598 bases of DNA from NCBI RefSeq assembly GCF_003334385.1, contig NZ_QOWN01000161.1; one strand, 5' to 3'. This stretch comes from Escherichia coli. GTDB taxonomy: Bacteria > Pseudomonadota > Gammaproteobacteria > Enterobacterales > Enterobacteriaceae. Shown here in pieces: positions 1 through 598 of the stretch. Below the pieces are notes generated by a model. The model made no database searches. It worked only from the letters and a program-made list of their open reading frames with translations, and was not told the origin of the DNA. Numbering within the stretch: the first letter of the stretch is position 1; every line of letters begins with the position of its first letter. The position numbers and the translations under genes were made by a program.

Positions 1-132
1 ATGTCAGACAAACTCATAACGCCGGCAAAGGTCCTGTGTGTGATTGTCGGTATTTCATTTTCACTAATGCTGGTTGCTCTTTTTCTGTCCCTCGCCTGGG
101 TGATGTTGTCTTCGTCGGGGCTGCTGGGGTGA
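1..132 (+). CDS. Small hydrophobic single-helix membrane peptide (43 aa if the ATG at 1 is the true start); function unknown; may be the 3' end of a longer gene that starts upstream of the window
   Basis: Frame 1 is open from 1 to the TGA at 130..132. Translation: MSDKLITPAKVLCVIVGISFSLMLVALFLSLAWVMLSSSGLLG. A short polar N-terminus is followed by about 26 uninterrupted hydrophobic residues. T falls at codon position 2 in this frame, as expected for a membrane helix, whereas the overlapping frame-3 reading gives a non-membrane-like CDCRYFIFTNAGCSF. Its stop overlaps the next candidate start (GTGA at 129..132). Absent from the ORF track, presumably for length. Confidence 0.4.
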   Translation: MSDKLITPAKVLCVIVGISFSLMLVALFLSLAWVMLSSSGLLG

Positions 133-251
133 CAGTGACTGATGACATCAGCAGAGCGCTGGCTTTTGCTATTAAGTGGGTGGCTGTTGGTATTGCTGTG
201 TCTCCGATGCTGTATGGGCTGGCAAAACTGGTCATTGCGCTGAAATCGTGA
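129..251 (+). CDS. Small membrane peptide (about 40 aa), paralogue of the downstream 263..349 micro-ORF; function unknown
   Basis: Frame 3. Translation from GTG 129: (M)TVTDDISRALAFAIKWVAVGIAVSPMLYGLAKLVIALKS, ending at TGA 249..251. The start is uncertain: GTG 129 (overlapping the upstream stop as GTGA) or GTG 135. The ORF track extends this frame back to GTG 36, but that extension overlaps the better frame-1 membrane helix. The core RALAFAIKWVAVGIAV aligns with [16 protein letters not shown] in the next ORF, with mostly synonymous or conservative codon differences. Confidence 0.5.
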   Translation: MTVTDDISRALAFAIKWVAVGIAVSPMLYGLAKLVIALKS

Positions 252-262
252 ACTTTAAAAAG

Positions 263-349
263 ATGAGTGCTGAACTTATTCGGGCAATGGCATTTGCCAT
301 TCGTATTGTGGCCATTGCTGTTCTGGTCTGGGCAATTCGTTGGTGGTGA
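263..349 (+). CDS. Micro-ORF encoding a 28-aa hydrophobic peptide, paralogue of 129..251; function unknown
   Basis: Frame 2, ATG 263 to TGA 347..349. Translation: [28 protein letters not shown]. One predicted helix with Arg residues and a C-terminal aromatic RWW. Protein-level similarity to 129..251 with silent nucleotide divergence. Its stop is 1 nt before the Rz ATG (TGA-T-ATG). Weakness: the sequence just upstream of the ATG is A-rich (AAAAAG) with no clear GGAGG-type Shine-Dalgarno. Confidence 0.45.
341..345 (+). promoter_or_regulatory. Shine-Dalgarno-like ribosome-binding site for Rz
   Basis: GGTGG at 341..345, followed by a 5-nt spacer (TGATA) and the ATG at 351. It lies inside the 3' end of the upstream micro-ORF, consistent with translational coupling. 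Confidence 0.5.
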
Positions 350-350
350 T

Positions 351-598
351 ATGAACCGTGTTCTGTGTGTGGTGATTATTGTCATGCTGGTAGCCTGTGG
401 TGTGCTTAGTCTGGGGCTGAATCATTACCGTGATAACGCCATAACCTACAAAGAGCAGCGCGATAAAAAAGTCAGTGAGCTGGAGCAGGCAAATGCAACC
501 ATTACTGATATGCAGCAGCGCCAGCGTGATGTTGCTGCACTTGATGCCAGATACTCGAGGGAATTAGCCGATGCGAGAGCTGAAAATGAAACTCTGCG
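351..598 (+). CDS. Rz: Rz-type i-spanin (inner-membrane spanin subunit), lambda Rz family; 5' portion only, truncated by the window's 3' edge
   Basis: ATG at 351 opens a frame that stays open to the window end. Translation: [82 protein letters not shown]. This is an N-terminal hydrophobic signal-anchor followed by a charged, Q/A/R/D-rich helical region. From memory of lambda Rz (..[44 protein letters not shown]..), the [11 protein letters not shown] and [10 protein letters not shown] blocks are near-identical. A Shine-Dalgarno-like GGTGG sits at 341..345, 5 nt before the ATG. Confidence 0.9.
557..560 (+). promoter_or_regulatory. Putative ribosome-binding site for the embedded Rz1 start
   Basis: GAGG at 557..560, about 10 nt upstream of the +1-frame ATG at 571, inside the Rz coding sequence. 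Confidence 0.35.
571..598 (+). CDS. Rz1: Rz1-type o-spanin (outer-membrane lipoprotein spanin subunit); only the first 9 codons are in the window, embedded in the +1 frame of Rz
   Basis: ATG at 571 is in the +1 frame relative to Rz and lies 220 nt into Rz, which matches my recollection of where lambda Rz1 begins inside Rz. Translation is MRELKMKLC..., compared with recalled lambda Rz1 MLKLKMMLC.... A second in-frame ATG at 586 is an alternative start. GAGG at 557..560 is a plausible ribosome-binding site. The lipobox and mature protein are beyond the window. Confidence 0.6.

Follow-up and report, generated by a model that had tools for sequence, protein, structure and literature searches.

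In lambdoid phages the late genes form one Q-dependent transcript. The lysis genes of lambda, S-R-Rz/Rz1, are packed with overlaps (17 nt between S and R, and the 4-nt ATGA between R and Rz), their reading frames alternate 3/1/3/1 and Rz1 lies in the +1 frame of Rz. For Shiga toxin (Stx) phages a survey reported a cassette type consisting of a pinholin, an endolysin of the signal-anchor-release (SAR) kind and Rz/Rz1, in which small open reading frames (ORFs) go unmentioned (PMC8136144). We analyzed a 598-nt stretch of Escherichia coli DNA (NCBI RefSeq assembly GCF_003334385.1, contig NZ_QOWN01000161.1), referred to below as the window, in which three small ORFs, ORF1, ORF2 and ORF3, precede the 5′ part of an Rz spanin gene on the plus strand. 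The window shares with lambda the packed junctions, the alternation of frames and an Rz/Rz1 pair of the lambda kind. In lambda, however, R abuts Rz, whereas at the locus of the window an antirepressor gene and four micro-ORFs intervene. This locus also differs from lambda in having a pinholin and a SAR endolysin, as in the Stx phages (PMC8136144), and the predicted ribosome-binding site of lambda Rz is far weaker than that of Rz in the window.

Our reading, to which we give a probability of about 0.7, is that the window is the distal part of a lambdoid, Stx-phage-like late lysis cassette, that ORF1–ORF3 are genuine modules shuffled by recombination and that the junctions between the genes are module borders. 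The close spacing of the genes is the ordinary compact packing of a phage late operon, which permits translational coupling. The less ordinary aspect is that these are shuffled, uncharacterised membrane micro-genes whose last codons form the predicted binding site of the next gene.

Small genes between the endolysin and spanin genes

ORF1 (positions 1–132, frame 1, module B) runs from ATG1 to TGA130–132 and encodes a single-pass membrane peptide of 43 aa. ORF2 (129–251, frame 3, module C) encodes a membrane peptide of 40 aa if GTG129 is the start and of 38 aa if GTG135 is used, and ORF3 (263–349, frame 2, module D), from ATG263 to TGA347–349, a membrane peptide of 28 aa that ends in RWW. There is one hydrophobic segment in each of the three. 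When the ORF boundaries were re-derived, the succession of frames 1/3/2/3 and every coordinate of the initial annotation proved correct, and PHROG matches and allele comparisons bore out its view that the four consecutive plus-strand ORFs are real co-oriented late-operon genes. ORF1, ORF2 and ORF3 belong to PHROG families of unknown function, namely phrog_4906 (E = 4.5e-21), phrog_1115 (E = 6.4e-25) and phrog_4493 (E = 3.8e-6; 6.1e-15 for a longer form of the module, D′), respectively. Sequence clusters of the ORF1 family numbered about 100, down to 62% identity; E. coli is the source of nearly all of them, and a length of exactly 43 aa is likewise kept in nearly all. For ORF2 we found 69 clusters from E. 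coli and Salmonella, and a profile search of 1.84 billion representatives returned 27 clusters at 50% identity. ORF3 is a short-form paralogue of ORF2 (shuffle p = 0.0005); it is annotated by the Prokaryotic Genome Annotation Pipeline (PGAP) as WP_032140280.1 and is unannotated in the Escherichia phage PhiR5_1.

Alleles of the micro-ORFs were compared frame by frame by the ratio of nonsynonymous to synonymous polymorphism (pN/pS). In the annotated frames this ratio was 0.42 for B (14 alleles, with the lowest value in the annotated frame), 0.17 for C (variable sites per codon position 9/5/28) and 0.13 for a related peptide, E. The remaining frames showed a higher pN/pS or contained stops, except the mirror antisense frame. 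The sole diverged lineage sharing the B-C-D order (L095/L096) carried ORF1–ORF3 intact. Comparison of the window with L095 gave pN/pS values, all from small counts, of 0.29 for B, where there was also an in-frame 3-nt indel, 0.37 for C, 0.41 for D (from just 7 differences) and 0.44 for Rz. ORF1–ORF3 are genuine small genes, the strength of the evidence differing from ORF to ORF.

The same modules were found in other orders elsewhere. We examined 80 loci from IMG/VR in which the N-terminus of Rz is closely related, together with phage and genome loci; since these were selected by Rz similarity, they are not an independent sample. At least one micro-ORF was present between R and Rz in all 86 loci with sequence upstream of Rz. 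The arrangement of the window, A-B-C-D (A being the micro-ORF just before ORF1), was observed in 38–39 loci, E alone in 28, C-B in 7 (one of them, L060, also with a methylase gene before Rz), Rha-B in 6, D′ alone in 3, Rha-B-C-D in 2, Ant-A-B in 1 and A-B-C with C frameshifted and D missing in 1 (L005). ORF1 and ORF2 thus occur in the opposite order as well, each with its own ATG and binding site. Homology broke off at 132/135 and at about 252, and BLAST hits in 5,426 complete E. coli genomes broke into 1–132, 135–252 and 290–350; from these break points the recombination joint between modules B and C is placed at 133–134. Pieces of the window were present in 2,180 of these genomes, and the region at 99% identity or more in 581. 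Because the micro-ORF block is near-invariant (38 loci; the 581 genomes) while Rz varies, the data suggest a recent spread of the block, in which recombination placed it next to different Rz alleles. Across the same loci the Rz N-terminus (351–598 in the window) showed 90–100% protein identity beside the near-invariant block at 1–350. In L060 (1569–2504) a 311-aa DNA methyltransferase-like gene lies between B and Rz and has the B-type start junction (GGGGTGA, 7 nt, ATG).

The window is 100% identical to a segment of PhiR5_1 (PV340545.1, 24331–24928) and to at least 16 E. coli chromosomes among the matches listed. In the PhiR5_1 and chromosome records the host region is the late region of a lambdoid Stx-phage-like prophage with the gene order class II holin S, lysozyme R, KilAC antirepressor, A (31 aa), ORF1, ORF2, ORF3, Rz and then the terminase genes. 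The holin and lysozyme genes are on the same strand as the window's ORFs, 1.1–2.8 kb upstream, and the lysozyme carries an N-terminal SAR-like segment. Under our reading the cassette would run from pinholin S through SAR endolysin R, the KilAC antirepressor, micro-ORF A and ORF1–ORF3 to Rz/Rz1. No promoter-like site was found inside the window, terminator-like sites were not clearly enriched over shuffled sequence, and neither an internal promoter nor a terminator was convincing as a candidate; a search of Rfam with both strands of the window gave no match up to E = 1. Since lambdoid late genes share a Q-dependent transcript and the window contains no promoter-like site, it can reasonably be inferred that the micro-ORFs are co-transcribed with the lysis genes. 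Full-text searching of the literature yielded no specific description of ORFs between R and Rz and no ribosome-profiling evidence on them.

The 3′ part of the window contains the beginning of the spanin genes. The 5′ part of Rz (351–598, frame 3) covers 82 of 155 codons; the 155-aa product has an N-terminal hydrophobic segment and matches phrog_13 (Rz-like spanin, E = 2.5e-38), as expected of an i-spanin. In the records this gene is annotated as endopeptidase Rz or as lysis protein. The start of the o-spanin gene Rz1 (571–598) is embedded in the +1 frame of Rz (frame 1 of the window). At the source locus ATG571 opens a lipoprotein of 61 aa that has a VSAC lipobox and is rich in proline in its mature part, and its predicted binding site, GAGGGA, has a duplex energy of −6.4 kcal/mol.

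Gene junctions and predicted initiation sites

The spacing between ORF1 and ORF2 is −4 nt (GTG129) or +2 nt (GTG135), that between ORF2 and ORF3 +11 nt and that between ORF3 and Rz +1 nt; further upstream it is +2 nt for A/ORF1 and −4 nt for Ant/A. Each stop therefore overlaps the next start or lies a few nucleotides from it, as in coupled gene pairs. Co-directional junctions overlapped or had a gap of at most 3 nt in 8 of 14 cases in the 8.6-kb locus, and the lambda R/Rz junction is of the same style. The packing is indeed typical of phage late operons, as the initial annotation had it, and the short spacings are non-random, yet they are a local rule. The changes of frame from gene to gene, which had been read as a signal, carry no information, because three neighbouring pairs all differ by chance with a probability of (2/3)^3 = 0.30, so that about 30% of random gene quartets show such a pattern, and lambda S/R/Rz/Rz1 does so too (3/1/3/1).

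Ribosome-binding sites were scored as the duplex energy with the tail of 16S rRNA (the anti-Shine–Dalgarno sequence, anti-SD), and percentiles refer to all positions of the 8.6-kb locus. The predicted site of ORF1, AAGGGG (−7.8 kcal/mol), lies inside the 3′ end of micro-ORF A. At the next junction the sequence GGGGTGA (126–132) forms the last codons and the stop of ORF1 (..G-L-L-G-stop) and doubles as the predicted ribosome-binding site of ORF2. The overlap GTGA described for this junction is present at 129–132, but the start of ORF2 is ambiguous, since GTG135, 2 nt past the stop, is at least as good. Both GTG codons are in frame 3, which is open to TGA249–251, and both are at most 6 nt from the ORF1 stop. 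The duplex energy was −9.0 kcal/mol for GTG135 (top ~4% of positions) versus −5.5 for GTG129. Similarity to loci in which B is followed by Rz stopped at 132, and similarity to ATG-started C genes started at 135. The valine codon at 135 was GTG in every locus of the window type and GTA in 10 of 10 ATG-started alleles, and some annotators call the 38-aa product. On the side of GTG129, the diverged L095 lineage has an ATG at that position, resulting in a canonical ATGA overlap. In other prophages the same 3′ end of ORF1, with GGGGTGA, is followed at 7–11 nt by the start of Rz or of the methylase gene.

The annotation of ORF2 in the databases is not uniform. RefSeq PGAP gives a 51-aa product (WP_042004856.1, window 96–251) from CTG96, which has no binding site and is unsupported as a start (dG +1.0); this call came about because frame 3 has just two stops in 598 nt (249 and 264). 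Other annotations of ORF2 have 38, 56, 58 or 71 aa. An alternative 33-aa ORF in frame 1 (142–243) has its ATG 9 nt from GGGGTGA and could compete for initiating ribosomes; as a real gene it was ruled out by a pN/pS of 1.58 and by stops in other alleles. The membrane segment of ORF2 at 174–221 (KWVAVGIAVSPMLYGL) shows a weak similarity to membrane segment 2 of the prophage's own pinholin, QWAAIGVLGSLLFGL (holin S, L001:1230–1445; pairwise E = 0.006, shuffle p = 0.004), and in one database protein (P0062) a holin N-terminus is fused to the ORF2 C-terminus at the same point, on a 554-nt contig that may be an assembly artefact. The idea that ORF2 is a copy of the second pinholin segment was rejected, the similarity being weak and the only further support this one chimeric protein. 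In phage phiSTEC1589-Stx1c (L005, ~1480–1625) ORF2 has a 1-nt deletion (GGCTTTTGC to GGCTTTGC), ORF1 ends in TAA instead of TGA and there is no intact ORF3.

ORF2 and ORF3 are separated by an A-rich spacer of 11 nt (252–262) without a ribosome-binding site. More than half of all positions have a stronger anti-SD duplex than ORF3 (−2.4 kcal/mol), whose leader is also predicted to be unusually open (unpaired probability at the 99th percentile). With regard to masking of the downstream start in coupled pairs, ORF3 thus combines a weak duplex with an open leader, ORF2 and Rz have sites of −9.0 and −9.2 kcal/mol, and a predicted hairpin at the ORF2 start scored z = −0.8 against shuffled sequence. 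Similar weak values were obtained for other second genes of tight pairs, namely a short C in L092 (−2.8 kcal/mol, ATGA overlap) and a 55-aa C in L090, C55 (−3.2 kcal/mol, 1-nt gap). The first genes in the arrays have predicted sites of their own (−6.8 to −9.3 kcal/mol). As judged from these predicted sites, this is the pattern expected where the downstream gene relies on reinitiation. Because it has no binding site of its own, ORF3 is the gene most likely to need reinitiation, after translation of ORF2, and the ORF2/ORF3 junction, which the initial annotation passed over, is the one that most needs coupling.

The junction of ORF3 and Rz was confirmed as a 1-nt gap (347–353), with TGA347–349 followed by T350 and the Rz ATG351. 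The RWW-stop of ORF3 (CGT TGG TGG TGA, 338–349) holds the Rz ribosome-binding site GGTGGTGAT (341–349), which had been correctly placed inside ORF3; its duplex energy of −9.2 kcal/mol is in the top ~4% of the 8.6-kb locus, and the predicted accessibility of the Rz start is average. Of 86 related loci, 73 have the motif TGGTGGTGA(T/A)ATG before Rz; the gene ahead of it is D, D′, E or a methylase. The 311-aa methylase of L060 uses a different frame for these bases (..EMVVI-stop), and its end shares an ATGA with the Rz start; both non-Rz frames hit a stop within the junction motif. The identical junction occurs in a locus from Salmonella in which both Rz and the peptide are divergent. Since the same junction follows D, D′, the unrelated peptide E and the methylase, Rz should be independent of ORF3 in particular; it appears to carry, or always to receive, a strong predicted site, without dependence on any one upstream gene. 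RWW is also a motif at the level of the protein: distant members vary the Arg codon (CGT, CGC, CGG) and the stop (TGA, TAG, TAA) and keep WW. In four of five distant loci with a gene ending in RWW the next start was −1 to +2 nt from the stop, and the genes abutting the RWW-stop in four loci were Rz, a sheath-initiator gene, a lysozyme gene with a hydrophobic N-terminus and a gene for a small lipoprotein. In the fifth locus (L102) the next called gene was 81 nt away.

These observations would fit a mechanism in which ORF1–ORF3 are modules that can replace one another and are shuffled, by recombination, in the interval from the endolysin to the spanin genes. The G-rich last codons of a module (GGGGTGA, or R-W-W-stop, that is, TGGTGGTGA) would serve as the ribosome-binding site of the next gene, which would explain why the next start lies a few bases from the stop and how modules could be reordered freely without silencing Rz. 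ORF2 and Rz, with strong predicted sites, would be initiated independently, perhaps with a contribution from ribosomes that have completed the upstream ORF. ORF3 would probably be translated by reinitiation of ribosomes ending ORF2 11 nt upstream, or by initiation at the open A-rich leader. Levels of expression would be expected to be unequal among the genes. The initial annotation regarded the genes as translationally coupled and expressed stoichiometrically. The junctions are compact and permit termination–reinitiation, but Rz and ORF2 have strong predicted sites of their own; each of the three junctions is geometrically compatible with coupling, and ORF3 is probably the only gene that needs it. 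Nothing in this implies stoichiometric expression, since the predicted strengths of initiation span a wide range (−2.4 kcal/mol for ORF3 to −9.2 for Rz) and coupling is not quantitative.

Alternative readings

Several observations weigh against our reading. The usual form of the C family has 48 aa and begins MKNGLELKAP, and in the C/D family generally the start MKNGLE(V/L)(D/K)AP stands behind a conserved leader, TTTYTGAGGYTGTCT-ATG. Both ORF2 and ORF3 lack this N-terminus (MKNGLE..AP) and the leader, and ORF3 also lacks a binding site; the copies of ORF2 and ORF3 in the window could be decaying. L005, a sequenced Stx1c phage in which ORF2 is frameshifted and ORF3 absent, shows that these genes can be lost. 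Differences of only 0–2 nt in 350 separate the window from the 38 IMG/VR loci that have its exact arrangement, which are therefore counted as a single observation, and the case for selection within this arrangement comes mainly from L095/L096, with few substitutions. The predicted hairpin at the ORF2 start had no extra stability over shuffled sequence (z = −0.8). Translation of the micro-ORFs and any coupling between them are things that we infer. As a side observation, a 60-aa form of C (MEKYKRILLRLT-MKNGLE..; L003 1435–1617, homologues P0014 and P0042) is probably over-extended, because its ..ILLRLT stretch corresponds to the leader TTTYTGAGGYTGTCT, which in distant members is found before MKNGLE without an upstream ORF.

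Coupling could also be obligatory at all junctions, with the three peptides and the spanins made in fixed, about equal amounts as one lysis unit. We consider this unlikely, even though stops and starts overlap or lie 1–11 nt apart, ORF3 has no binding site, the L095 lineage shows the canonical ATGA at ORF1/ORF2 and the RWW-stop abuts the next start in several contexts. The sites of Rz and ORF2 are in the top 4%, the Rz site is kept behind six different upstream genes with average accessibility, site strengths are ~7 kcal/mol apart and coupled gene pairs are, as is generally known, rarely translated 1:1. The start region of ORF2 is predicted to be paired with ORF1 coding sequence, a pairing that would suit coupling, but the hairpin does not exceed shuffles, and a structure-gated ORF2 start was ruled out for this reason. 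The loss of the usual N-terminus and 5′ leader points to a different possibility, that ORF2 and ORF3 are N-terminally truncated recombination scars, open by chance or because of recent origin, and that only ORF1 and Rz are functional. Scars would also agree with the near-clonality of the arrangement, the absence of any start but GTG in ORF2 and of a binding site for ORF3, and the loss of both genes in L005. Against this, both ORFs are intact in L095/L096 with pN/pS of ~0.4, and ORF2 has an ATG there, either acquired or kept. An intact 38-aa gene with an upstream ATGA overlap, present in 122 collection blocks, again has the short N-terminus M(S/N)AEL(I/L)RA.AFAI; codon 135 is GTG, not GTA, only where it would be needed as a start; and the region is found, at 99% identity or more, in 581 of the 5,426 complete E. 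coli genomes. We regard scars as improbable to a similar degree.

Two further explanations deserve very little credence. Programmed frameshifting could fuse neighbouring ORFs, for instance ORF1 and ORF2 by a −1 shift into frame 3, given that this frame has stops only at 249 and 264 and is open across ORF1, and that the 3′ half of ORF2 has no stop in frame 2. However, no in-frame X XXY YYZ slippery heptamer is present in ORF1, ORF2 or ORF3, the order of ORF1 and ORF2 is reversed, with own starts, in other prophages, and the alternative frames have pN/pS above 1 and stops in other alleles. The reversed order, each gene with its own ATG and site, also disposed of the idea, taken from the 90-aa profile phrog_3246, that ORF1 and ORF2 are one gene split by a frameshift. 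It is equally hard to believe that the 123-aa ORF on the minus strand (14–385), the longest in the window, is the real gene and the plus-strand micro-ORFs its shadows. Over ORF2 this antisense frame is stop-free with pN/pS of 0.30, a value expected as the mirror of the sense frame because third codon positions coincide; over ORF1 it has pN/pS of 1.5 and 23 stops among 14 alleles, it is impossible where the modules are reordered, and it has no PADLOC match.

Possible role of the peptides and comparison with known systems

The initial annotation assigned the micro-ORFs to the lysis programme. Their position between the endolysin and spanin genes agrees with this, but distant relatives lie outside lysis cassettes. 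C and B follow the endolysin gene in three cassette types of E. coli and Salmonella prophages: pinholin with SAR lysozyme (E. coli), holin_2_3 with lysozyme (Salmonella), and holin_8/holin_3_7 with a cytoplasmic GH108 endolysin. Elsewhere family members were found behind a SASA esterase gene (L090) or a capsid gene (L102) and in front of a tail sheath-initiator gene (L099). In the third cassette type (L092–L094, ~2300–2961) the genes downstream of holin_8, holin_3_7 and the GH108 endolysin encode a 65-aa paralogue, then C (38 aa, ATGA overlap), B (44 aa) and a small lipoprotein with an LVGC lipobox (phrog_7528); an Rz-like i-spanin ORF was not found in this cassette. L102 (1501–2403), a metagenomic phage contig, has five micro-ORFs right after the major capsid gene, the first encoding a C/D-family peptide that ends in RWW and the last an E-like peptide that does so too; the RWW end is therefore common to two otherwise different peptide families.

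ORF1–ORF3 had no match in Pfam, NCBIfam or PADLOC. They do not look like holins or antiholins, as judged by the lack of a Pfam, NCBIfam or PHROG holin match and of a charged tail, nor like spanins, having 28–43 aa, at most ~11 residues past the membrane segment and, on reading, no lipobox. No match in Rfam, PADLOC or NCBIfam indicated a type I toxin–antitoxin system or a known RNA element. Our likeliest guess is a late-expressed accessory role in the inner membrane, possibly tuning lysis. It is also possible, though we hold this more tentatively, and would sooner doubt than assume it, that PHROGs 4493, 1115, 6632 and 4906 form a portable set of genes for single-pass membrane peptides in late operons whose conserved end motifs (R-W-W-stop, G-x-x-G-stop) double as the next binding site and whose products could modulate pinholin, SAR-endolysin or spanin action. 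If this were true, such ends would let peptide genes insert between essential late genes without polar effects, and the peptides would be hitherto unrecognised modulators of lysis timing or efficiency.

Rather than annotation noise, the micro-ORFs are genes that are conserved and shuffled, and about one third of complete E. coli genomes contain them. In Stx-type phages they sit in the cassette that sets the timing of lysis and hence the release of Shiga toxin. Their annotation is nevertheless inconsistent: ORF2 is given from CTG96 (51 aa), from GTG135 (38 aa) or in over-extended form, and ORF3 is missing from some phage records.

Apart from lambda, the closest points of comparison are with protein families, coupled gene pairs, lysis accessory proteins and morons. 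ORF1–ORF3 match the PHROG families 4906, 1115/3246, 4493 and 6632, and the upstream micro-ORF A, with its relative E, does likewise; they differ from the profiles in that ORF2 and ORF3 of the window cover the C-terminal part only. Known examples of termination–reinitiation are trpB-trpA, with UGAUG, and the coat–lysis pair of MS2. The window resembles these in having a stop in or beside the next start and, at ORF3 as at the short C of L092 and the C55 of L090, a downstream gene without a site; it differs in that two of its three junctions have strong predicted independent sites.

Small membrane proteins acting with pinholin/SAR-endolysin lysis have been described in Lcc6, a 65-aa protein of the Shewanella phage LambdaSo (bioRxiv 10.1101/2024.01.23.576932), and in releasin gp25 of Mu (PMC9239132). 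The peptides of the window may be likened to these, by analogy, as small membrane-anchored phage proteins of a cassette that also has a pinholin and a SAR endolysin. Lcc6, unlike them, is encoded far from the lysis genes, and the peptides of the window, unlike Lcc6 and releasin, also occur with a cytoplasmic GH108 endolysin and outside lysis cassettes. Similarity of the peptides to Lcc6 or releasin was not found, no dedicated comparison having been made, and Pfam gave no match, DUF2730 included. Phage morons are small accessory genes between essential late genes, such as bor and lom of lambda, and bring their own promoter and terminator. Like morons, the micro-ORFs vary in presence, absence and order among collinear prophages and are located at module borders. 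Unlike morons, they come without a promoter or terminator and instead carry, in their last codons, the predicted binding site of the next gene.

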